This document shows positions 6,258-23,522 of a DNA stretch of 64,000 bases, in pieces. The stretch's first letter is position 1. Every line of letters starts with the position of its first letter. Origin of the DNA: Minisyncoccota bacterium (GTDB lineage: Bacteria > Patescibacteriota > Minisyncoccia > Phycocordibacterales > JAACPR01); NCBI GenBank assembly GCA_041674225.1, contig JBAYWG010000001.1, positions 169,401 through 233,400 on the forward strand. Direction: 5' to 3'. The notes beneath the pieces are model-generated. The model saw only the letters and a list, made by a program, of their open reading frames with translations, had not been told where the DNA came from and ran no database searches. The position numbers and the translations under genes are program-made.

Positions 6258-6938
6258 ATGATAAACCTAGAAGAATTAAACTCCGAATTGGAGGTTTTAC
6301 CACCGACAGACATTGTCCGTCACGCATTCAAAAACTTATTTGGAGACAGGCTTGTAGTAGCGTCTTCTTTTGGTGCTGACTCTGCTGTCATGCTTCACAT
6401 GGCAACACAAATCAATCCTCGGATACGAGTAATAATGATCGATACTGGATATCTTTTTCCGGAGACTCACGAGTATGTAATTACGCTTAAAGAAAGATTA
6501 AAGCTCAATCTGCACGTGTTTTATGGAAAAGAAACTCCCGAGGAGATGGAACGCAACCATGGGCAGCTTTGGGAATATGGTGAGGAAGGATTAAGCCTCT
6601 ACCACTCAATTCGAAAAGTTGAACCACTCAGGAGAGCGATTCAACAATTGAAAGTGAAAGGTATCCTCCATGGAGTCAGAAGAGATCAGACGGAACATCG
6701 TTCAAATTTGAACGTTATTGAAAGAGGATATGATGGAACATTCAAAATTCATCCGATTCTGAAATGGACTTCGCGAGATATTCGCAGCTACAATAAGACT
6801 CACAACCTACCGGAACATCCACTGTTTCTTCAAGGTTACGAATCAATTGGTGACATTCATAGCACAAAACCAGGTGAACGCCGCAGTGATCGAGATCTCG
6901 GAGAGAGTGATGAATGTGGGATAAATTATCAGATTTGA
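6258..6938 (+). CDS. cysH: Phosphoadenosine phosphosulfate (PAPS/APS) reductase family protein
   Basis: VVASSFGADSAVMLHMA (PP-loop-like SxGxDS), HPILKWTSRDIRSY, C-terminal ECGI..., all typical of CysH-type reductases. Confidence 0.75.
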   Translation: MINLEELNSELEVLPPTDIVRHAFKNLFGDRLVVASSFGADSAVMLHMATQINPRIRVIMIDTGYLFPETHEYVITLKERLKLNLHVFYGKETPEEMERNHGQLWEYGEEGLSLYHSIRKVEPLRRAIQQLKVKGILHGVRRDQTEHRSNLNVIERGYDGTFKIHPILKWTSRDIRSYNKTHNLPEHPLFLQGYESIGDIHSTKPGERRSDRDLGESDECGINYQI

Positions 6939-6966
6939 TTTGTGATTCAATTTCACAAATCAAAAA

Positions 6967-6996
6967 GCGCACGACTTCGTCGTGCGCTTTTTTTCT
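6967..6996 (+). terminator. Rho-independent terminator (9-bp perfect stem gcgcacgac/gtcgtgcgc, loop ttc, T-run), bidirectional between cysH-like gene and 7006..7341
   Basis: Read directly from the sequence. Confidence 0.7.
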
Positions 6997-7005
6997 TTTT
7001 AATTT

Positions 7006-7341
7006 TTATTTATCCCCTTTCCCAAACACCATCGAAATCAGAGCAAGCAAAACTCCAAAGAATAAAGCTGACCAAAATCCTGCAACTTCAAATCCAGACA
7101 CAACGTAATCAGTTAGCATCACCATTAATGCAGTGATCACCAATGAGAAAAGTCCCAAGGTCACAATGTTTATCGGCAAAGTTAAAATTGTAATTATAGG
7201 TCTTACAAAAGTGTTAACGATTGCTAAAACTACAGCTACAATAAGTGCGGTAAAGAAACCACCAACAAAAACTCCTGGTAACAAATATGCGGCAATTATC
7301 ACAGCAAGTGCGGACAAAATAAGATTAATTATTATTTTCAT
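7006..7341 (-). CDS. Small 4-TM membrane protein of the YvlD/DUF360 (phage-holin-4-like superfamily) type
   Basis: 111 aa, four hydrophobic helices, LLPGVFVGGFFTALIVAVVLAIVNTFVRP motif characteristic of DUF360. Confidence 0.5.
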   Translation of the reverse strand: MKIIINLILSALAVIIAAYLLPGVFVGGFFTALIVAVVLAIVNTFVRPIITILTLPINIVTLGLFSLVITALMVMLTDYVVSGFEVAGFWSALFFGVLLALISMVFGKGDK

Positions 7342-7433
7342 ATTGTTTATATTATTGATTAATTAGTTATATATCCATTATAGCAAATTTAAACCATATA
7401 ACTTTTATCTCCAAAATATAATAGAATACAACT

Positions 7434-8294
7434 ATGCAAATAAAACGCCTTCTAAAAATAAGCCGACCGAGATTTTGGATTTATGAAATAGGTCCTTATA
7501 TTGTAGGAATTGCAGCAGCAGCGGGTATAACACTGAACGCGTGGCTTTTAATCCCCGCGATCATATTTTTCTTTTTTTTCACATATCCAGCAAATATTTT
7601 TATCTACGGAATTAATGACATTTTTGATTACGAAACAGATAAATTAAATCCAAAAAAAATATCCTACGAATCTCTTGTAATGCCGGAAGAGTGGCCAAAG
7701 CTTTGGAAAAATATTATTTTGTTTTGTGCGCCTTTTTTAGTCTATGGATTTTTTGTTTTAAATATTCAAAGCTTCATCGCGCTTCTGGCTTTCTTTTTCT
7801 TTGCGGGATTTTATTCATCTACACCGATCCGTGCAAAAGCTCGTCCTTTTTTAGACAGTATTTTTAGTGCAGGACATTATGTTGCTACAGCCGTGTTTTC
7901 ATATTTGATGATTAATTATTTTTTAAATCAAGAAATTACTTGGGTTAATCTCGCGATTGGCACACTTGCAGGAATGTTTTGGGCTATAGCTATGCATGCA
8001 TATTCCGCAGTTCCGGATATTCAAGCAGACAGAGATGCAAAACTAGAAACCATTGCTACAAAGTTAGAAAAAAATAAAACAATAATTTTATGCTCAGTTC
8101 TTTATGCACTTTCTGGAATTCTTGCTTTCAAATTTTTAGGGATAGTCAGCATTATCCTTTCACTTGTTTATGTTGTATTTATGATCAAATCAATCAAAAC
8201 AACAGACGAACAACTTTTCAAAATTTATACTTATTTCCCAAAAATAAATTCTCTTTCAGGAATGATTATTTTCTTTTCAGTTTTACTTAATTAG
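7434..8294 (+). CDS. UbiA-family aromatic/polyprenyl prenyltransferase (membrane). Given its neighbours, a candidate lycopene elongase or carotenoid/prenyl-lipid prenyltransferase
   Basis: NDIFDYETDKLNPKK (NDxxDxxxD motif) and multiple TM helices. Convergent with crtI. Confidence 0.7.
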   Translation: MQIKRLLKISRPRFWIYEIGPYIVGIAAAAGITLNAWLLIPAIIFFFFFTYPANIFIYGINDIFDYETDKLNPKKISYESLVMPEEWPKLWKNIILFCAPFLVYGFFVLNIQSFIALLAFFFFAGFYSSTPIRAKARPFLDSIFSAGHYVATAVFSYLMINYFLNQEITWVNLAIGTLAGMFWAIAMHAYSAVPDIQADRDAKLETIATKLEKNKTIILCSVLYALSGILAFKFLGIVSIILSLVYVVFMIKSIKTTDEQLFKIYTYFPKINSLSGMIIFFSVLLN

Positions 8295-9796
8295 ATTTCT
8301 TTTAGTGGTTCTGCGTCTTGTATATTTTCTAATCTTTTATAAACCAACTCTGCAGAAATTAAACAAATAGGCATACCGATTCCTGGATTTGTACCGGCAC
8401 CCACATAATAAAGATTCTTAACCTTCTTGCTAACATTATTCGGTCGAAAAATTGCAGTCTGACTCAATGAGTGTGCAAAACCTAGTGCAGTACCTTTAAA
8501 TGCATTGTAGTCCTTGATGAAGTCTTTTACAGAATAAAGCTTTTTATACACAATTCTATTTTTGAAATCTGGAATATCCATATTTTCTGCCATTTGATTT
8601 ATTACAAACTCAGAATATTCTTCTAGTGATTCATCAGTGTGATCTAAACCAGAAGCAATTGGCACAAGTACAAACAAATTTTCTTTATCAGCTGGCGCTA
8701 CATTTGCATCAGTTTTTGATGGACAACAAACATACAGAGAAGGATCTGTTGGCCATGTAGGTTTTTTAAATATTTGTGAAAAGTTTTCTTCCCAATTTTC
8801 AGCAAACAAAAGATTGTGGTGTTGCAGAGACGGAATTTTTCCTTCTACTCCCATGTACATAATAAATGCAGATGGTGCAAGCAATCGTGATTCCCAATAT
8901 TTTTTACTTTTCTCCCGGTGTGGCTCATCCAAAAGATGCATATCTGTGTGAGCAGTATCTGCATTTGAAATCACAATATCAGCTCGAAATTCTTGTCCGT
9001 TTTCCAATCTCACTCCCACAGCAGTTTTATTTTCAACAATAATTTTATTTACAGGACTGTTTAACAAAATCTCAACTCCGTGTTTTTTGGCAATAGTTTC
9101 CAACGCTTCTATGATTTTATAAATACCTCCTTCTGGATACCAAATTCCCTCCACAAAATCTACATAATTCATCATGCTATAAATCCCCGGCGCATCTCCA
9201 GGAGAAGTTCCAAGCAAAACAGTTTGATATTGCATTACTTTTCTCAGAATTTCGCTTTTGAATTTTTTCTCGATGATAGACTTCACACTTGAGAAGAGCG
9301 GGAGTTTTCTTCCTTCTTTCATTACTCTTTTGTTGAAGAAGTCAAAAATAGTATCGTAGTTTTTAAACATGAATTCATTTTTTGCGATTTCATATTGATA
9401 CTTTGTACTATCCATATATTTTCTCAAAACATCACCAGAACCCGGCTCCAAACTTTCAAAAGTTTCGATTGTTTTTTCTAAATCAGAATAAAAATCATAA
9501 TGTTTCTTTTCGCTTTTTAGAAAAATCCGGTACGAAGGAGAAAGTCTTTTTAATTTTAAATATTGAGTAATATCTTCACCCATCAATTTAAAAAAGTGCT
9601 CAAAAATATCTGGCATCATGTACCAAGACGGCCCCATATCAAAAACAAAACCATCTTCGGAATAGATTCTGGCTCTACCGCCGACTTGATCATTTTTTTC
9701 AATCATCTTCACCTTGTATCCCTTTTTAGCCAACATACAAGCCGTAGAAAGGCCTCCGATACCTGTTCCTATTATGATTACTTCTTTTTGACTCAT
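8291..9796 (-). CDS. crtI: Phytoene desaturase / CrtI-family FAD-dependent carotenoid desaturase
   Basis: VIIIGTGIGGLSTACMLAKKGYKVKMIEKNDQVGGRA FAD-binding N-terminus and length ~500 aa typical of CrtI. 4-nt overlap with crtB. Confidence 0.85.
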   Translation of the reverse strand: MSQKEVIIIGTGIGGLSTACMLAKKGYKVKMIEKNDQVGGRARIYSEDGFVFDMGPSWYMMPDIFEHFFKLMGEDITQYLKLKRLSPSYRIFLKSEKKHYDFYSDLEKTIETFESLEPGSGDVLRKYMDSTKYQYEIAKNEFMFKNYDTIFDFFNKRVMKEGRKLPLFSSVKSIIEKKFKSEILRKVMQYQTVLLGTSPGDAPGIYSMMNYVDFVEGIWYPEGGIYKIIEALETIAKKHGVEILLNSPVNKIIVENKTAVGVRLENGQEFRADIVISNADTAHTDMHLLDEPHREKSKKYWESRLLAPSAFIMYMGVEGKIPSLQHHNLLFAENWEENFSQIFKKPTWPTDPSLYVCCPSKTDANVAPADKENLFVLVPIASGLDHTDESLEEYSEFVINQMAENMDIPDFKNRIVYKKLYSVKDFIKDYNAFKGTALGFAHSLSQTAIFRPNNVSKKVKNLYYVGAGTNPGIGMPICLISAELVYKRLENIQDAEPLKEI

Positions 9797-16080: not shown

Positions 16081-16120
16081 TAATAAAAGAAAAAGCCGGT
16101 TCGAGATGAGTCGAACCGGC
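16081..16120 (-). terminator. Rho-independent terminator for the minus-strand Ubl/E1/JAB unit (10-bp perfect stem gccggttcga/tcgaaccggc followed by a T-run on the minus strand)
   Basis: Read directly from the sequence. The T-tract is present only in the minus orientation. Confidence 0.65.
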
Positions 16121-16151
16121 TAAGTAAGTTAAGCCTGTTTGTTGGTAAGGC

Positions 16152-16520
16152 TTAGTTACCGCGAATCTTTGAAAAGATCAACACCTGTGCTCCTTCTTCG
16201 AGCACCTCCTCAAAATTGGAGATTGTCTGTCCGTTCAAACGAACCTCTCCTTCAATTTTGTCTCGATAACCGGCAATTACCAGCGCCTGTCTGATTGTGG
16301 TTCCAGAGTCCACCTCGAAAGGTTTGATCTGTCCACCGGGGAAAGCACCGACTTTCACGTTGATTTTCTCAACTTGTGCCGGAGTCTCCTTTTTGGAAGT
16401 TGCTTTCTTTGCAGCGGGTTTCTTGGTGGTTGCTTTCTTTGTGGTTCCTTTTTTCATGGTTCTTTTCTTTTGGTTTGTTTGTTGTTTACAGATTTTTTTA
16501 ACTGAACGACGAACCCACAA
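16152..16520 (-). CDS. Ubiquitin-like beta-grasp (ThiS/MoaD-like) protein with a Lys/Thr/Ala-rich histone-H1-like N-terminal tail. The C-terminus ...IFSKIRGN is not Gly-Gly
   Basis: The C-terminal ~75 aa (INVKVGAFPGG...EVRLNGQTISNFEEVLEEGAQVLIFSKIRGN) follow the ThiS/MoaD pattern. The N-terminal tail is MKKGTTKKATTKKPAAKKATSKKETPAQ. The gene overlaps the 3' end of the E1 gene by 23 nt; an alternative start is at 16457 (MKKGTTKK). Confidence 0.6.
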   Translation of the reverse strand: MWVRRSVKKICKQQTNQKKRTMKKGTTKKATTKKPAAKKATSKKETPAQVEKINVKVGAFPGGQIKPFEVDSGTTIRQALVIAGYRDKIEGEVRLNGQTISNFEEVLEEGAQVLIFSKIRGN

Positions 16521-17205
16521 TCATCATGGGTTGAAGTGAGAATATCAATTCATGCTCGAACTCATCGGTCGGTTCTTTACCTTCCTTAAGTTTCTGCATT
16601 TTCTGATACCATCGGATGAATTGCCACACAGCAAATCCCGAGACCATTTCTGCCGTCGGACCTACTGTGATAGTTGCTCCGCAAGCGGAGACTTCAGCAA
16701 CGTCATCACCATACAGAGTTTTTTCCCATCCCGAAACTTCTACGGGACTTGATGGATTCACTGTATAGATACGACCACTATTGGAACCCATACGAGTCTC
16801 AATAATAACCTCAACGTGAGGTCTGTAACGAAGTGATCCTTTCCAGATTTCTTGTCGTGAAGACATTGTATCTGTCAGCAGGAAAACAATCTGACCGAGA
16901 CGTTGTGTTCCATCAACTCGTTCATTGTGCACCGAAACTTCGGTACCTGTCTGCACGAGAATAATATCTTTCAACGCCTCAACCTTGAGTTGTCCATTGT
17001 GATTGTTACCGAATATTTGGTTTGGGACGTTGTGGGGTTCCACTACATCCGGATCCCAAATGTGAATGTTACGGATACCGAGCTTCGCCAACGAAAGGGC
17101 GATTCTAGATCCTGTAGCACCCACACCTATGATATCGATACGTCTATCACCAAATTCTTGCGGTGAAAACACATCAAGGTGTCTTATTACGTCTAGTTCT
17201 GGCAT
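16498..17205 (-). CDS. Minimal E1-like ubiquitin-activating/ThiF-MoeB family adenylyltransferase (235 aa, no rhodanese or zinc-ribbon domain)
   Basis: IDIIGVGATGSRIALSLAKLGIRNIHIWDPDVVEPHNVPNQIFG combines the GxGxxG P-loop and the DxDxVExxN...Q motif of the ThiF/MoeB/E1 superfamily. Confidence 0.8.
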   Translation of the reverse strand: MPELDVIRHLDVFSPQEFGDRRIDIIGVGATGSRIALSLAKLGIRNIHIWDPDVVEPHNVPNQIFGNNHNGQLKVEALKDIILVQTGTEVSVHNERVDGTQRLGQIVFLLTDTMSSRQEIWKGSLRYRPHVEVIIETRMGSNSGRIYTVNPSSPVEVSGWEKTLYGDDVAEVSACGATITVGPTAEMVSGFAVWQFIRWYQKMQKLKEGKEPTDEFEHELIFSLQPMMIVGSSFS

Positions 17206-17237: not shown

Positions 17238-18023
17238 TTAACGAAACCTTTTCCGGAAAAACCGGGGTTTATATTTTCCTCCAAAACCCTTGAAAAAGGG
17301 TGGTGAATACGGAGCGAACCGCAAAGCAGTAACTTTCCGTTTCATTTCCTCCCGAAGATCATTACGAATTTCATCCAGTTTGTCCCAGTCATCTATGTCT
17401 TCTTCTGTCCATTTCCATGGAACAGAATGAAAAGCGAAACCCTTCTCCCAGTCATAAATTCCGAAATTGATATCTCCTTGACGATTTAAGATACCGCGCA
17501 AGAAAAAATCAGTACCGAAACTTTGAAAGATTTTCATCTGATCATTATCTTGACCAGATGGGTAAGTTCCACCATTTCCATGTGAATGTCCCCAGAAGCG
17601 TATGTTGTTGAAGATTTCGTCACCACCTTCTTTCGAAAGGATTTCCATGACAAATTCTTGAAGAGCTTCTGGAAGAATTTCAGTATGGCCACCGCTCACA
17701 GTCTGAGGAAAGAGGAACACGTCATCGATGATGAAGTCTTCTCCTAGTCGCCGAGCAGTTCCAAGCCACCCCACTTCAATATTGATTGCACCTACAATAA
17801 CGTACATCTTGAAGAGGGCCAATGGACTGACAAATACAGTCGGAATATGGTGTTTCAACGTCAGAACTTCCAGAGTTGTATGGAAAACATCCGACGGAGC
17901 AAAAAATTGTCCGTCTGTCTCTGCGAATTCCCATTGGTAAGGCTGCGGAGGGGTTGGAGTATATGGGCGAGGAGCACCAACAATTTTTGCTGGCAGAGGG
18001 AGTTTAGTATTGTTTTTTTTCAT
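17238..18023 (-). CDS. JAB/JAMM (MPN+) metalloprotease-domain protein with a ~120-aa N-terminal extension
   Basis: Exact JAMM signature WGHSHGNGGTYPSGQD (HxHx7Sx2D) with an upstream acidic residue. 32 nt upstream of the E1 gene. Confidence 0.8.
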   Translation of the reverse strand: MKKNNTKLPLPAKIVGAPRPYTPTPPQPYQWEFAETDGQFFAPSDVFHTTLEVLTLKHHIPTVFVSPLALFKMYVIVGAINIEVGWLGTARRLGEDFIIDDVFLFPQTVSGGHTEILPEALQEFVMEILSKEGGDEIFNNIRFWGHSHGNGGTYPSGQDNDQMKIFQSFGTDFFLRGILNRQGDINFGIYDWEKGFAFHSVPWKWTEEDIDDWDKLDEIRNDLREEMKRKVTALRFAPYSPPFFKGFGGKYKPRFFRKRFR

Positions 18024-18112
18024 TTAGATTCGATTGTGAAGGTTCTTTTTATACTACTTCTGTAATTCTTTTATTATATTTTAAGGGTTTTGTCAATACC
18101 CCACCCCTTTTT

Positions 18113-18152
18113 ATCTAATATAAAAAACCGCTCTCAGAAACTCTGAGAGCGG
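18113..18152 (-). terminator. Rho-independent terminator downstream of the 543-aa gene (stem accgctctcag/ctgagagcggt, T-run on minus strand)
   Basis: Read directly from the sequence. Confidence 0.6.
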
Positions 18153-18167
18153 TTTGACTTAAAGCCA

Positions 18168-19799
18168 TTATTTGATAGCAAGACTGCCATCAAATTCCTT
18201 CAAGAATTCCAGGACCAGCTCGATTACTGTTTCCAGATCGAGTTCTCCAAGAAGTTCCGGCAATGTCGCATGAAGAGGACCTATGGGTAGCCCTCCATCC
18301 CACATTGGGTGCAAATGAGGAATATTAATATCCGGCTCCATTTCGTTACCGATCGGAGAAATACTAACTAATCCTTTCAACACGTTGCACAAAATACGAA
18401 ACGATCCGATGTTGTGAATTTTTTCGGTTGAAATGTCCCTGCTTTTGATAGATCTAGTATCAACAACGAAGACATCATCTCCCTTGAAAAAGACACCCGA
18501 GACTTCCGGCCAGGCACTCACCCTTTGGATACGTTCATTGAACAAATCAGTGGTCACAGCAGCAGGAACCTTTACAAGGTTTTGGATAAAAACGTTTTGC
18601 GCTATCATCATCTGATTGCGACGAATATTATTCATCAACTTTTTCAGTTCATTTTCCTTATCCTGCTTCTGTGCTGCTCGTTCATCTACGAACAGATTAC
18701 GGAAAGCCGAGATCACGACAGGATCTTTAAGCGGTGGCTTTTTTGGATAATCGATACTTTTATCAACAACAGGAAACTTCCTCAAAACAGTGAGGTAATC
18801 TCCGTAATGAATTTCGTTTATCGTTCCAATTGCTTTAATGGCAACAAGGATGGACGCTTCGAACTCATAATCCTTGAGTAAAGGAAGAATAACCTTTCCT
18901 TCCCCCATACAAAATTGATTCGTGTACCGATCCACATGAGGATGACCAAAAGTGTGTCTTTCATACTCAACTCGACGAGTGAGGTTTTTAAACACAGCAG
19001 GTGTTTCTTCACCACCTCCAAAGAGAAGCTTGATCTCAAATTGTCCAAATTCATGAAGAATTTTAGTTCCGGGATCAACAGCATACATGGTCTGTGTGGT
19101 GAAAATGATTCTTCTACCATCCACTCTAATGTTCTGAATCTCAGGAATATTCCAAAGAGTTTGAAGCACCTTATCAGCTTCTTCGTAAGCTTGCTGGTTG
19201 TCATCATTCTTTGATACCAAAGAAGAAGTCAAAACAATATCGTTTTGAATCAGCCGACGATTTTCTGTAAGCTGTTTTTGAAGATCAACATCTTTCTTGG
19301 ACTTAGGAATTTTGAATTTCCCATTCTTGATTTGAACAAGACTAGGCAAATCTCCCCTGATGAGATTCATTGCTTCTGTAAGAATGTGTTTATACACATC
19401 CACGTTCGGCTTATTACAGCAATTGTTAGAAGCATCGTAAAGCAAATACAGATTATTTTTTCCAACGAGTTCTGCAACAGCATAATTGCTTTCAGGATCC
19501 ACAATAACAATCCCTCTACCAGAAGGTTGATATAGAGTACGATTACATGTACGAACTCTTTGTTTCCACAACTCGTCTGGAAGCGTCAATTCGACCTTAT
19601 CACCATCAGCAGTACCGAAGACGTTAAGAAAAAATGTAGTTGAAAAACGACGTACATCTCTTTGTCTTCCTTGACAGTTGTACAGTTGAATTTCATTGAA
19701 CCCCAATATTTCCAATGCATCACCCAAAACATCTCGGGTAGCTGATTCAAAAGAATCCGCAACACGAAAATCCCAATTTGTTTTTTCTATTCTTATCAT
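18168..19799 (-). CDS. Large hypothetical protein (543 aa) with a central UBC-like E2 active-site signature (ERHTFGHPHVDRYTNQFCMGEG; compare canonical HPN[IV]x3-4GxIC) flanked by uncharacterised N- and C-terminal regions
   Basis: Same strand and GC regime as the Ubl/E1/JAB genes. The E2-like call is motif-level only. Confidence 0.45.
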   Translation of the reverse strand: MIRIEKTNWDFRVADSFESATRDVLGDALEILGFNEIQLYNCQGRQRDVRRFSTTFFLNVFGTADGDKVELTLPDELWKQRVRTCNRTLYQPSGRGIVIVDPESNYAVAELVGKNNLYLLYDASNNCCNKPNVDVYKHILTEAMNLIRGDLPSLVQIKNGKFKIPKSKKDVDLQKQLTENRRLIQNDIVLTSSLVSKNDDNQQAYEEADKVLQTLWNIPEIQNIRVDGRRIIFTTQTMYAVDPGTKILHEFGQFEIKLLFGGGEETPAVFKNLTRRVEYERHTFGHPHVDRYTNQFCMGEGKVILPLLKDYEFEASILVAIKAIGTINEIHYGDYLTVLRKFPVVDKSIDYPKKPPLKDPVVISAFRNLFVDERAAQKQDKENELKKLMNNIRRNQMMIAQNVFIQNLVKVPAAVTTDLFNERIQRVSAWPEVSGVFFKGDDVFVVDTRSIKSRDISTEKIHNIGSFRILCNVLKGLVSISPIGNEMEPDINIPHLHPMWDGGLPIGPLHATLPELLGELDLETVIELVLEFLKEFDGSLAIK

Positions 19800-19865
19800 T
19801 TTGTACTAGGTATAATTTTAAAACAACTTCTGGCAGAAGAATATAACACAAATCAAGACATGTCA

Positions 19866-19906
19866 ATTATTAAAATAAAAAGCCGCCACCCAACCAGGGT
19901 GGCGGC
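19866..19906 (-). terminator. Rho-independent terminator downstream of the FAD-oxidoreductase gene (10-bp stem gccgccaccc/gggtggcggc, T-run on minus strand)
   Basis: Read directly from the sequence. Confidence 0.65.
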
Positions 19907-19913
19907 ATACACA

Positions 19914-21467
19914 TCAGCGAGCGAGCTGATATTCCGCGCTTCTCATAACAACACCAAACAAAACATCTCCAATCCGATGAAGCATGCCAGGAATGACGAT
20001 GGCATTCGGGTTGTGAGGAGTTTCCAACACAGACCCAAAGCCGTAATAACCAGACAAAATCCGCTTCTTAGGATCAGGACTGTGTTTGACGATAAACTCT
20101 CCATCGTAATCAAACAAAGGACACTTATCTACAGGATCGTAGGTGCAGCCCATGCTTTTCATAACTTCCGGCGAATTACCATACCCAATGAGTGTCATGA
20201 TCTTCCCAAAGGGAATTTTTTCAACCTCAGAGTGCTCTTTACGAAAGACGTAGACTTCCTTTCCAGCAACTTCCCAACGATTGACTCCATAAAGAATTTT
20301 TCCATTGTGAAGCGCACGGTAGTAATCACTACGACTTCTCGCAAGATCTCCCTGAAAATCAACCAGATTAGGAAGGGATACATCCCGAAATAATCTGCGT
20401 GCAACTCCATCAACGACAACAGTCGTGTTTGGATTATAAACACATTCTTCAGGGTAGTGAGTAAGAACACGATAGTCCACAGCCGCACCTCGATCAATCA
20501 GATTATGAATCTGAAAAAGCATCTCTGCCGTTGAATTACCGAGTCCGACGAGGATAATTCTCTTACCCTCAACTTCATCGCGATCAATAACCTTCTGCCA
20601 ACGTGAACCGGCTTGGGCAGTGGTCGCTTCAGTAGTCATGCGACTTGGATCAGAAAGCGGTTTTGGTTTACCGAGACCAATCGTATTAATAACGATTGGA
20701 AAAGTTTCTTTTTTTCCATTAGCGAAATGAAGCACGTGCTTCAACTTACCAGGAACAATCTTGACCACCGTCTCCTTTTTAGAACGGTAAGCTAGATTAT
20801 CTAGGAACCGGCGAACTTCTTCACCATCTCCAGGTGCAGGCCGCAAGATTCTATCAAAGAATTGTAGCTGACGTGGATTATTCCTAGACAGTCCAAAGAC
20901 ATTGTTCTGACTCCAGATACCCAGCGGCTTAGACTTCTCATATATGGTAATGTTATTAAAACCAAGTTGTCTGAGCGCGTAAGTGATAAGAATCCCCGCA
21001 GCCCCATAACCGACAACGGCAATTGGAACTCGAGACAAGGAATTTGGAATAGTAGATTGGCTGACAAAAAAAGTTGCCGCACCCTCTCCTAAAAACTGTT
21101 CCGGACTCCGAAGACCGCTATTGGCAAGAGCCAAATCGATACGACGATTCTGCAAATGTTCACCTCGATATTCAGGAAGATTATCTTCACTGTCGATAAA
21201 AGGAAGTGCTTGGGCATAACCATTAAGAACTCCTCCAACATCACCGACTCGAAGAACCAATTCAGAAAAAAGGTTACCCCAACGTCCTGTGTTTGACATT
21301 TCTTGGACAGCATCAAGACTGAATCCTTTCTCGTCAATCCATCTTCTCAGAACACCCAGCGAAACCTTTTTCATAAAAGAATCTCCTAGGGTCTTGAGCT
21401 TTTCACAAGCAGTCACTAAGTCACGAGGAGTTCTTTTTGAACTCATTCTTTTTGAAGCGGTATTCAT
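19914..21467 (-). CDS. FAD/NAD(P)-binding oxidoreductase with two dinucleotide-binding motifs (flavin monooxygenase / pyridine-nucleotide-disulfide-oxidoreductase-like) and a ~150-aa N-terminal extension
   Basis: VPIAVVGYGAAGILITYALRQLGFNNITIYEKSKPLG (GxGxxG) and RIILVGLGNSTAEMLFQIHNL (GxGxxA) Rossmann motifs. Confidence 0.7.
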   Translation of the reverse strand: MNTASKRMSSKRTPRDLVTACEKLKTLGDSFMKKVSLGVLRRWIDEKGFSLDAVQEMSNTGRWGNLFSELVLRVGDVGGVLNGYAQALPFIDSEDNLPEYRGEHLQNRRIDLALANSGLRSPEQFLGEGAATFFVSQSTIPNSLSRVPIAVVGYGAAGILITYALRQLGFNNITIYEKSKPLGIWSQNNVFGLSRNNPRQLQFFDRILRPAPGDGEEVRRFLDNLAYRSKKETVVKIVPGKLKHVLHFANGKKETFPIVINTIGLGKPKPLSDPSRMTTEATTAQAGSRWQKVIDRDEVEGKRIILVGLGNSTAEMLFQIHNLIDRGAAVDYRVLTHYPEECVYNPNTTVVVDGVARRLFRDVSLPNLVDFQGDLARSRSDYYRALHNGKILYGVNRWEVAGKEVYVFRKEHSEVEKIPFGKIMTLIGYGNSPEVMKSMGCTYDPVDKCPLFDYDGEFIVKHSPDPKKRILSGYYGFGSVLETPHNPNAIVIPGMLHRIGDVLFGVVMRSAEYQLAR

Positions 21468-21535
21468 TTGTATGTAATATGGGTTTAAAATTGAACAGTA
21501 TTCGTTTTCGAAATTAACATTATTTTATGCTATTG

Positions 21536-22462
21536 TCAATTTTTTTGGAATTTAATAGTTTGTTCTGTCCAATCAAAATATGGCCAGCTCACAATATTAT
21601 TTCTAGCAAGAATTCTAGGACCCCAATATGATAAGAAGAAAGTTCCAGAGACAATAAGAAGTACAGCAGTAAGGATTACCACACGATTAGTTTTAGCATT
21701 AAGCCATTTTTCAAATCTACCTCCAGTTCCATAGAAAAGAATCAAAAACAATACTGCCATTACAATAATATTTCCAATCCCCTGAAGAACAAAAGCGAGG
21801 CTACCATAAAATGGATTATGAGTTGAGGCCGCGTATTCAAACATTTTTCTAAAAAGTGGAAAGGGACGACCAATTAAAAATGCACCTATAGTTGCACCCA
21901 TGATAAAAGGAGCGGCCCACACATGTTTTGCAAAAAACTTCGAGAATGGATTAGGAATTACTTTAATAGTTCCCAATCCCCAAATAATATAAGTGATTCC
22001 AATCAAGCAGAATACAACAACCGACTGCAAGAGTCGCACTGGCATTCCATTTGAAAGTTGCTCGGTTGAAAGCTGAGGAAGGTTCGAGCCAATCAAAGCA
22101 CCTATCCCGCCATAAAGCGCAGCTACAACAATTAGACCAAGTGACAAAAATCCTAAAGGCTTCAAGACACTTCCAGTTGATCTCTTTCCACTTGAAAGTG
22201 GAGCGATCGCACTAAAAGCACAAATGTTGCAAGCAGTGAAAGTTCCTGCCAAACCTGAAACAAAGGCAAATAATGCACCCATAATTATTCCAGTAATTGG
22301 AGTAGTCTTAGCATCATATCCAAGAAGATTATTAGCTATAGGATCTCCAAGATCACTATCCACAAATGAAGCTGACCAAAATACACTTATAAGAAAACCC
22401 AACAAAACGCTACCTACCACTATTAAAGTTTTTTGTTTTCGGCTTATATTAATTTGTTCCAT
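21536..22462 (-). CDS. Polytopic integral membrane protein (~8 TM) with a Cys pair inside a TM helix (AGTFTACNICAFSAIAPL), possibly DsbD/CcdA-like
   Basis: Hydrophobicity pattern. Last gene before tRNA-Gln. GC like the island. Confidence 0.45.
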   Translation of the reverse strand: MEQINISRKQKTLIVVGSVLLGFLISVFWSASFVDSDLGDPIANNLLGYDAKTTPITGIIMGALFAFVSGLAGTFTACNICAFSAIAPLSSGKRSTGSVLKPLGFLSLGLIVVAALYGGIGALIGSNLPQLSTEQLSNGMPVRLLQSVVVFCLIGITYIIWGLGTIKVIPNPFSKFFAKHVWAAPFIMGATIGAFLIGRPFPLFRKMFEYAASTHNPFYGSLAFVLQGIGNIIVMAVLFLILFYGTGGRFEKWLNAKTNRVVILTAVLLIVSGTFFLSYWGPRILARNNIVSWPYFDWTEQTIKFQKN

Positions 22463-22502
22463 ATTTCTAAACTACAATTTTAATATGAACATGTCAATTT
22501 TA

Positions 22503-22575
22503 GGTTGCCCGACAGGGATTCGAACCCCGATTAATGGCTCCAGAAACCACTGTCCTACCATTAGACGATCAGGCA
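22503..22575 (-). tRNA. tRNA-Gln (anticodon CUG)
   Basis: Hand-folded cloverleaf: acceptor UGCCUGA/UCGGGCA with the U1:A72 pair typical of bacterial tRNA-Gln, D-arm GUCU-AAUGGUA-GGAC, anticodon arm GUGGU-UUCUGGA-GCCAU, T-arm CGGGG-UUCGAAU-CCCUG. CCA not encoded. Confidence 0.8.
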
Positions 22576-22613: not shown

Positions 22614-23522
22614 CTATTGAGTTTCCAACGGCTCATTCGTAAAAGGATCTCTAGGACCAGTGTATTCTGGTGGAGCTGGTTCTGCAGGCGCTTCATCTTC
22701 TACTTTTATTAGTTGATCTAAAATTTCAGATGATTGTTCATCTGTTTTATTTAAAAAGAAAAACCAAAAGAAAAATAATCCAATCAAACCTAACAAAACT
22801 ATTAGAACAAAAATCATAGGCCATGGACTTTTTTCAATTTTCTTTTGCTGTTCTTCCGCTAAAACTTTTTCCATTTCTGGCATTCCTGCAAAACCAACAT
22901 TTATATATTGTTGTGCCTGCACTTTTGTTGGCATGAATGGAACACTTGAAACTGGAGCTTCACCTTCTACTGATCCAGTTTCATTTAGAACTTTTGGAGT
23001 CGAGTTCTCTTTTTGATTTGCAATTTCATTTGGCAGAAGTGTCGTTCCGGGAGCTGGCAATCTTTGCCCACCACTTGCCATCAAATGTGCAGCGGTCTGC
23101 GTATTCGTTCCAACATTCATAAAAGTCTGTGCTGAATCTTTTACAGCAGATTGTGCAGAACCTTCTTTTTCAAAACCTACAGGGACGAAACCTTTTTTAA
23201 TTTCCGGATGAACAAAATCATGTTTAAACAATTTTTCTTTTGCTTTTAAATTTTCTTCTGCAGGAGCAACGACAGACGGTGCAACATTTGTCTGACTTTT
23301 TATTAATCCTAAATCTGTATCGACTTCAGGTGATGTTGTTGTTCCAATTGTGGGTACAGGGTTTTTCACTGCCGGTTCACTCCCACGATACTGAGAAAAC
23401 AATTCACTAATGTCTGCATCTTGAAAACCTTGTTTCATCAAAACATCACGAATATCTTCATAATCGCGCCCCTCGGCCAAACTACTCTCAATCAATACTT
23501 GTAATTGTTTTGTTAAAATCAT
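22614..23522 (-). CDS. Hypothetical protein with one C-proximal TM helix and a low-complexity middle region
   Basis: 302-aa ORF. PWPMIFVLIVLLGLIGLFFFWFFFL hydrophobic segment. Confidence 0.5.
   Translation of the reverse strand: MILTKQLQVLIESSLAEGRDYEDIRDVLMKQGFQDADISELFSQYRGSEPAVKNPVPTIGTTTSPEVDTDLGLIKSQTNVAPSVVAPAEENLKAKEKLFKHDFVHPEIKKGFVPVGFEKEGSAQSAVKDSAQTFMNVGTNTQTAAHLMASGGQRLPAPGTTLLPNEIANQKENSTPKVLNETGSVEGEAPVSSVPFMPTKVQAQQYINVGFAGMPEMEKVLAEEQQKKIEKSPWPMIFVLIVLLGLIGLFFFWFFFLNKTDEQSSEILDQLIKVEDEAPAEPAPPEYTGPRDPFTNEPLETQ

Follow-up and report, generated by a model that had tools for sequence, protein, structure and literature searches.

Layout of the locus

The window analysed here is a stretch of 64,000 nucleotides (contig JBAYWG010000001.1) from a metagenome-assembled genome (MAG) of Candidatus Paceibacterota, in the Candidate Phyla Radiation (CPR). 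It carries a cassette of genes for a ubiquitin-like protein (Ubl), a JAB/JAMM metallopeptidase, a ThiF-type E1 and a 543-aa protein (Unk543), preceded by two genes which are the subject of this work and encode a 517-aa flavoprotein (Flav517) and a 308-aa membrane protein (Mem308). On the minus strand, which carries all genes of the block, the order is prfB, ftsE, ftsX, pyrG, a gene for a 302-aa membrane-anchored protein, tRNA-Gln, Mem308, Flav517, Unk543, JAB, E1 and Ubl. With a probability of roughly 60%, the region consists of two unrelated things: Flav517 is a facultative, separately transcribed accessory of a five-gene CPR block with a core resembling the Bil operons, and Mem308 is a backbone gene standing between tRNA-Gln and this block.

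Both open reading frames (ORFs) of the initial annotation were confirmed (Table 1), and their products are identical to NCBI entries WC087_01010 and WC087_01015. Their position next to the E1/Ubl pair was likewise confirmed, Flav517 and Mem308 lying directly upstream of the 543-aa ORF, itself followed by JAB, the ThiF-type E1 and the beta-grasp Ubl. The description of Flav517 as the head of the cassette is correct physically, but a strong terminator and a promoter-like site separate it from the next gene. A promoter-like box precedes and a terminator follows Flav517 and Unk543 alike, and Mem308 has its own TTGACA box. Judged from these signals, the block appears to be split into several transcription units. 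Given its own promoter-like box and terminator, Flav517 would therefore be a separate transcription unit, that is to say a conserved neighbour instead of an operon member.

Table 1. Coordinates of the genes and signals in the window, and of the DUF6008 genes at related loci
Feature	Sequence	Coordinates	Strand
Flav517, 517 aa, two-Rossmann FAD/NAD(P)H flavoprotein with N-terminal helical domain of ~145 aa (predicted)	window	19914..21467	(-)
Mem308, 308 aa, polytopic membrane protein, widespread uncharacterised family, weakly DsbD_2-like, one invariant Cys	window	21536..22462	(-)
Unk543, 543 aa, probable E2-like protein	window	18168..19799	(-)
JAB/JAMM metallopeptidase, intact HSHx7SxxD	window	17238..18023	(-)
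Minimal ThiF-type E1, 235 aa, single adenylation domain, conserved SACG cysteine	window	16498..17205	(-)
Ubl, beta-grasp, Lys/Ala-rich N-terminal tail, C-terminus IRGN	window	16152..16520	(-)
Intrinsic-terminator-like hairpin, 10 bp stem (9 GC) and T-run, 8 nt past Flav517 stop codon	window	19882..19906	(-)
Promoter-like site TTGACA-17-TATTCT, 10/12 matches, upstream of Unk543	window	19838..19866	(-)
Promoter-like TTGACA box upstream of Flav517, overlapping Mem308 stop codon, one copy of a 38-nt repeat	window	21506..21543	(-)
Other copy of the 38-nt TTGACA box (71% identical), upstream of Mem308	window	22464..22501	(-)
TTGACA promoter-like box upstream of JAB	window	~18085-18100	
Terminator-like hairpin, 14 bp stem, 3' of Unk543	window	18125..18155	(-)
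Terminator-like hairpin 3' of Ubl gene, cassette end	window	16094..16121	(-)
tRNA-Gln (CTG), directly upstream of Mem308	window	22503..22575	(-)
302-aa protein between pyrG and tRNA-Gln: short N-terminal helical domain, long low-complexity linker, single C-terminal transmembrane helix; no family assignment	window	22614-23522	(-)
DUF6008 gene	L002	7438-8001	
DUF6008 gene	L003	6744-7232	
DUF6008 gene	L004	11555-12217	
DUF6008 gene	L024	5933-6529	
DUF6008 gene	L029	8267-8833	

Genomic context of Flav517 and Mem308

To document linkage, 18 genome loci with Flav homologues, further contigs obtained from exact-protein look-ups and one metagenome locus were collected, and all their ORFs were searched with iterated hidden Markov models (HMMs), one per window protein. 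A metagenome scan with the GHPHVDR core of Unk543 yielded a single locus, L023. Besides the window, a Flav orthologue was found beside Unk543-JAB-E1-Ubl in six loci (L001, L002, L004, L011, L024 and L029), while L003 carries Flav and a DUF6008 gene followed by the contig end. The arrangement varies: Flav is divergent in L002 and L024, and four loci (L002, L004, L024 and L029) contain an insertion, either a gene for DUF6008 or an ORF of 194 aa. The flanks of these loci have no other gene family in common, and their proteins are only 24–56% identical to the window counterparts. Thus, of the co-conservation with Ubl, E1 and JAB that had been anticipated for both genes, the part concerning Flav517 was observed. 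The part concerning Mem308 was not: no Mem308 homologue occurs in any of the 20+ Flav or cassette loci. Conversely, Ubl, E1, JAB and Flav genes are all missing from five neighbourhoods of Mem308 homologues, in Herpetosiphonaceae, in Amycolatopsis and on three metagenomic contigs, where the genes are unrelated ones.

Base composition separates the two genes in the same manner. The GC content at third codon positions (GC3) of the backbone is 0.245±0.048 (n=41 window ORFs), compared to 0.36 for Flav517, 0.35 for Unk543, 0.37 for JAB, 0.40 for E1 and 0.45 for Ubl. Flav517 shares the atypical GC3 of the cassette, which suggests that the five genes arrived or evolved together, whereas Mem308 is backbone-like (0.25). 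We also considered tRNA-Gln as the att site of an integrated island. This was not supported, since a search for tRNA-derived direct repeats at the borders of an island gave none; it is further disfavoured by the presence of Mem308, with its backbone composition, between the tRNA and the high-GC3 block.

Members of the Flav family are also found near E1-like genes in other contexts. On a Woesearchaeota contig (L007 12-6141), a ThiF gene (293 aa), two ORFs of 243 and 966 aa and a gene for a Flav homologue follow each other on one strand, with a 4-bp overlap between the last two genes; here the Flav family has become associated with an E1-like gene independently, and in an archaeon. In L006, an Unk543-like (E2-like) gene is directly followed by E1, 8 kb from Flav. 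A possible Rosetta-stone link, the ThiF-Pyr_redox fusion P0106, was rejected because its 'weak' ThiF match on a 482-aa protein is a Rossmann cross-match; the E1 HMM built here cross-matches every Flav at 1e-5 to 1e-11.

Several observations weigh against a functional tie between Flav517 and a Bil-like cassette. No cassette lies within 7–10 kb of about eleven Flav homologues for which the flanks suffice; one of these, in L030, is 50% identical to Flav517. In L023 (3232-14642), prfB-ftsE-ftsX-pyrG are arranged as in the window and are followed by an AAA ATPase, two tandem Unk543 paralogues, JAB, E1 and Ubl; the cassette thus occupies the same chromosomal position downstream of pyrG with neither Flav nor Mem308. 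Which gene heads the cassette thus varies, although the chromosomal site is conserved. With a terminator and promoter-like sites of its own, Flav517 is monocistronic and shows no sign of co-regulation with the cassette, and the statistics of the E2-like assignment of Unk543, detailed below, are marginal (best E 0.12; hhalign probability 17%). In a neighbour-joining tree, all cassette-linked Flavs group in one clade except that of L011, which branches elsewhere. Part of the co-occurrence may accordingly reflect the kinship of these loci, that is, inherited synteny and not selection.

Pushed to its end, this argument would make Flav517 an independent housekeeping or redox enzyme of CPR bacteria and DPANN archaea, adjoining the cassette by descent without functional coupling. 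The breadth of the Flav family, most members of which stand alone, the Flav-less cassette of L023, the transcription signals proper to Flav517 and the grouping of most linked loci in one clade all agree with it. Nevertheless, the adjacency outlasts inversions, insertions and wholly different flanks at 24–56% identity, L011 is linked yet lies outside the main Flav clade, Flav517 has the GC3 of the cassette and not that of the backbone, and separate E1-Flav links exist in L007 and L006. We regard inherited synteny alone as a serious alternative, although less probable than a facultative accessory role. The link between Flav517 and the cassette is real but facultative, Flav517 being a recurrent optional neighbour.

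The initial annotation had noted in Mem308 a TACNICAF Cys pair (residues 76–83), reminiscent of DsbD/CcdA-type thiol-disulfide transporters. The pair is present in the window protein but is not a feature of the family. In an alignment of 30 sequences, only C78 (30/30) and N79 of this segment are invariant, position 81 being Cys in 13 homologues and Ala (mostly) or Thr in the other 17; C152 is found in 3/30, and the second half of the protein lacks any conserved Cys. CcdA and DsbD possess two essential cysteines, one per inverted repeat of three transmembrane (TM) helices, in TM1 and TM4. Mem308 resembles these proteins of the LysE-type superfamily by its polytopic helical nature and by a conserved Cys halfway along a TM helix, but differs from them in having one invariant Cys and none in the second repeat. 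Neither Pfam nor NCBIfam gave a match of meaningful score for the window protein, and PF13386 (DsbD_2), one of the domains expected from the initial annotation, is matched by 3/30 homologues only (best E 7e-6). The Mem308 model shows ~7 TM helices and extra elements, and CcdA (5vkv) aligns over 175 residues. With the two-cysteine signature missing and similarity weak, assignment to the DsbD/CcdA-type transporters could not be upheld.

The Mem308 family is large, with 1379 matches among 8000 candidates scored, and Mem308 is 50–60% identical to members in Chloroflexi (Herpetosiphonaceae, Roseiflexaceae) and many Actinobacteria. We judge Mem308 to belong to the resident backbone and not to the cassette; its family is widespread, uncharacterised and transporter-like, with distant DsbD_2-type kinship. 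The 'thiol transporter' lead was thus misleading and can be dropped. It is still conceivable that Flav has a membrane partner, given that a His-rich DUF6008 (PF19471) membrane protein with conserved His motifs (HFAEH, HLxGN and FHLxEH) is encoded next to Flav in five sister loci (Table 1). The DUF6008 protein, which is not present in the window, could be a membrane redox partner of Flav; nothing ties Mem308 to such a role.

In L001, the Flav/cassette block is directly preceded by genes for a 556-aa large serine recombinase and for an HNH-like protein (6863-9100). This neighbour suggests mobility of the block.

Fold and enzyme class of Flav517

Flav517 has the features of a two-dinucleotide-binding flavoprotein, namely two Rossmann beta-alpha-beta units with a GxGxxG and a GxGxx[GA]-type motif. 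The first motif, VVGYGAAG (residues 151–158), is as initially read. The second, LVGLGNSTA (residues 306–314), is not a strict GxGxxA but a GxGxxT followed by Ala (GLGNST-A), and the two are 155 residues apart (G153 to G308) instead of the ~170 first estimated. The AlphaFold2 model (40 homologues) has a mean predicted local distance difference test (pLDDT) of 91.8 and a predicted template-modelling score (pTM) of 0.92, and shows the two beta-alpha-beta units. In agreement with the distinct N-terminal domain of ~150 aa noted earlier, the first ~145 residues are confidently modelled and all-helical, the helical domain spanning residues ~20–115. A Foldseek search with this model returned 707 PDB chains at E ≤ 1e-3, all of them two-dinucleotide-binding flavoproteins. 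The predicted fold, a two-Rossmann FAD/NAD(P)H-type flavoprotein, is thus secure.

Placing Flav517 within this large group is less straightforward. When the family profile was compared with PDB sequences, flavin monooxygenases (FMOs) ranked first (2gv8, 1vqw, 5nmw and 8odw; E ~1e-6), the match running through the GxGxxG...GxW segment. The nearest relatives include class-B FMOs and N-hydroxylases, as had been proposed from the motifs. By fold, the highest similarity found was to a YpdA-type reductase, at 12% identity. Among Pfam models, NAD_binding_8 (20.6 bits for a cut-off of 21.9) and Pyr_redox_2 both stayed below the gathering score, as did Pyr_redox_3 (14.3 bits for a cut-off of 30), and FMO-like was not matched by Flav517, PF13738 or PF00743 being found in scattered homologues only. 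The domains anticipated for this protein were therefore seen at sub-threshold level or not at all. The FMO-identifying motif FxGxxxHxxx[YF], searched as a regular expression, has no match in Flav517 and matches one of the 40 family members.

Cysteines provide a further distinction. There is no invariant Cys among the 40 Flav sequences and Flav517 lacks a CxxC or Cys pair of the thioredoxin reductase (TrxR) type; a CxxC-type disulfide reductase is therefore excluded. We considered C441 and C449 as a cassette-specific pair. They are present in 16/40 and 15/40 sequences, respectively, neither tracks cassette linkage and the second varies even among cassette-linked members; this candidate was rejected. 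Compared with YpdA/Bdr and the small class-B FMOs (SMFMO 4a9w, 3d1c; Pyr_redox_3 / COG2072 group), to which it is only 12–15% identical, Flav517 has the extra helical domain of ~145 aa, lacks both the YpdA Cys and the FMO motif, and remains sub-threshold in Pfam. Taken together, these results make it a divergent member of the YpdA / small-FMO / TrxR-like group with a family-specific N-terminal helical domain. As to its reaction type, sequence motifs lean towards a class-B, FMO-like oxygenase or oxidase.

The main mechanistic rival of an oxygenase is a YpdA-like, Cys-independent reductase. Flav517 would then be an NADPH-dependent disulfide, persulfide or acyl-disulfide reductase which keeps the cysteines of E1 and E2, or species derived from a Ubl thiocarboxylate, in the reduced state. 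The conserved cysteines of both E1 and the E2-like protein agree with such an activity. However, YpdA and Bdr are recognised by a conserved Cys inside the first Gly-rich loop (GGGPCG), which in Flav517 reads GYGAAG, sequence profiles place FMOs above reductases, identity to YpdA is as low as 12%, and many Flav homologues have no E1 or E2 nearby. We consider this role doubtful.

Named members of the Flav family belong mostly to CPR/Patescibacteria and DPANN archaea (Woesearchaeota, Micrarchaeota), with a few in Ktedonobacteria and in MAGs labelled Gammaproteobacteria. The occurrence of the family in ultra-small episymbionts of unrelated lineages suggests that genes have been shared among these. 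Searches of plasmids with Flav517 gave only distant generic oxidoreductases, and tblastn of Unk543 against phages gave no match.

The cassette core and possible roles of the flavoprotein

Unk543 carries two copies of a ~140-aa core separated by a coiled coil. The first (residues 208–350) contains the invariant motif GH(P/S)HVDRx5-6CxGEG, the Cys of which is C297; the second (residues 422–537) is degenerate and without this Cys. An exhaustive HMMER search gave 696 family representatives at 50% identity. None of 49 sampled members matches Pfam or NCBIfam, and scans of relatives against Pfam, NCBIfam and PADLOC identified no family and no E2 model. While the full-length profile retrieved only coiled-coil noise from PDB, all ten matches of the core profile among all PDB sequences were E2 ubiquitin-conjugating enzymes (UBE2L3, UBE2A), with E of 0.12–1.8. 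The family pattern GxFRIEI...PHV..G..CL aligns with UbcH7 GAFRIEINFP...YHPNIDEKGQVCL, including the catalytic Cys and with the HPN..Cys region in register. The same register was obtained by hhalign with three human E2s (P 0.0015, probability 17%). Marginal one by one, these matches together point to Unk543 as a probable E2-like protein, and its presence in the cassette favours protein conjugation over sulfur transfer.

The other core components are more readily identified. The HxHx7SxxD motif of JAB is intact in all eight orthologues. E1 matches Pfam ThiF (2.9e-17) over a single adenylation domain; its best NCBIfam matches are ThiF sulfur-carrier adenylyltransferases, all far below cut-off. 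A PRTRC (ParB-related/ThiF-related) cassette was also considered and rejected, E1 scoring 27 bits against TIGR03736 (cut-off 145) with no ParB present. The Ubl ends in (V/I)RGN and not in GG in all eight Ubls with an intact C-terminus, including those of L001, L002, L004, L023, L024 and L029. Such an end would imply either the removal of one residue by JAB or chemistry on the C-terminal Asn. MccB-type E1 homologues act on a C-terminal Asn.

Taken together, Unk543, JAMM, the minimal ThiF-type E1 and the RGN Ubl most likely constitute a Bil-like protein-conjugation cascade. JAB would trim the terminal Asn of the Ubl, E1 would adenylate the exposed Gly and form a cysteine thioester, and the Ubl would then pass by thioester to Cys297 of the E2-like protein and on to a target. 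Flav517 would most likely supply an NAD(P)H-driven, FAD-using oxygenation or reduction that modulates or executes the output of the cascade.

Bacterial Ubl conjugation systems (CBASS Cap2/3, Bil, Bub) have come under study only recently. Those described are, to our knowledge, all from cultivable phyla and none has a flavoenzyme partner. The BilABCD operons encode a Ubl, an E2, a JAB and an E1, with no E3, and the BilD E1 is a multidomain IAD-AAD-CYS protein (PMC11601596). The present cassette probably has the same four-part complement, Ubl, JAB and E1 being clear and the E2-like status supported by marginal matches, as well as a patchy, island-like distribution (the atypical GC3 in the window and the serine recombinase next to the cassette in L001). 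The differences are several: the E1, with 235 aa and one ThiF-type adenylation domain, is not of the multidomain BilD type, the E2-like protein has 543 aa, two core copies and coiled coils and matches no E2 model, the C-terminus of the Ubl is RGN, a flavoprotein recurs beside it and the hosts are CPR bacteria. The Bub (6E/DUF6527) operons, which include the DUF6527 serine protease BubE and Ubl-E2 or E2-E1 fusions (PMC11601596), are excluded by the lack of a DUF6527 match and by the separation of all genes. The block resembles the Bil type of bacterial Ubl conjugation cassette, set apart by its minimal E1, its large duplicated E2-like protein and its recurrent flavoprotein.

Sets of Ubl, E1 and JAB beside an oxidoreductase have precedents in the Qbs/Pdt siderophore clusters and in MoaD-MoeB-AOR with a pyridine-disulfide oxidoreductase (Iyer et al. 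2006, PMC1779556). The E1s of these sulfur-carrier clusters either have rhodanese domains or are accompanied by enzymes of cofactor or siderophore synthesis, none of which is present here; the cassette of the window has instead a probable E2-like protein, and its flavoprotein is of a different family. Features of a ThiS/MoaD-type sulfur carrier are absent here: the Ubl has no GG end, and no rhodanese, cysteine-desulfurase or sulfur-acceptor gene was found in the window block or related loci. The proposal of the initial annotation, in which Flav517 and Mem308 would serve E1/Ubl in thiocarboxylate or sulfur chemistry with Mem308 as the thiol-disulfide transporter, can draw on the CxxC of Mem308 and 13/30 homologues and on the sub-threshold sulfur-carrier matches of E1, but is very improbable in view of these absences, the RGN end, the E2-like protein, the lack of a conserved redox Cys in Flav517, and the single invariant Cys, backbone GC3 and unlinked distribution of Mem308.

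Going beyond a facultative accessory of a Bil-like core, one may imagine that the five genes form a new CPR-borne Ubl system with flavin chemistry in its mechanism. For example, N- or S-oxygenation of the target, of an acceptor nucleophile or of the Ubl C-terminus could lead to a non-isopeptide (hydroxamate-type) linkage, or Flav517 could be an NAD(P)H-consuming effector producing reactive oxygen species and switched by Ubl conjugation, with DUF6008 as an alternative redox partner in sister loci. We hold this to be a speculative and rather improbable extension. In the literature searched, which was incomplete, no paper was found describing the block, none for DUF6008 and none on Ubl/JAB/ThiF mentioning Patescibacteria. 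If the linkage is functional, ultra-small CPR bacteria would join the hosts of Ubl conjugation systems, and these systems would gain a large E2-like family so far unannotated (about 700 representatives at 50% identity). The five genes would also be a tractable set to test redox coupling to Ubl conjugation.

A minor observation concerns the N-terminus of the window Ubl. Its true start is probably the ATG at 16457, and its Lys/Ala-rich, histone-H1-like tail is encoded by a 30-nt tandem repeat at 16390-16449.

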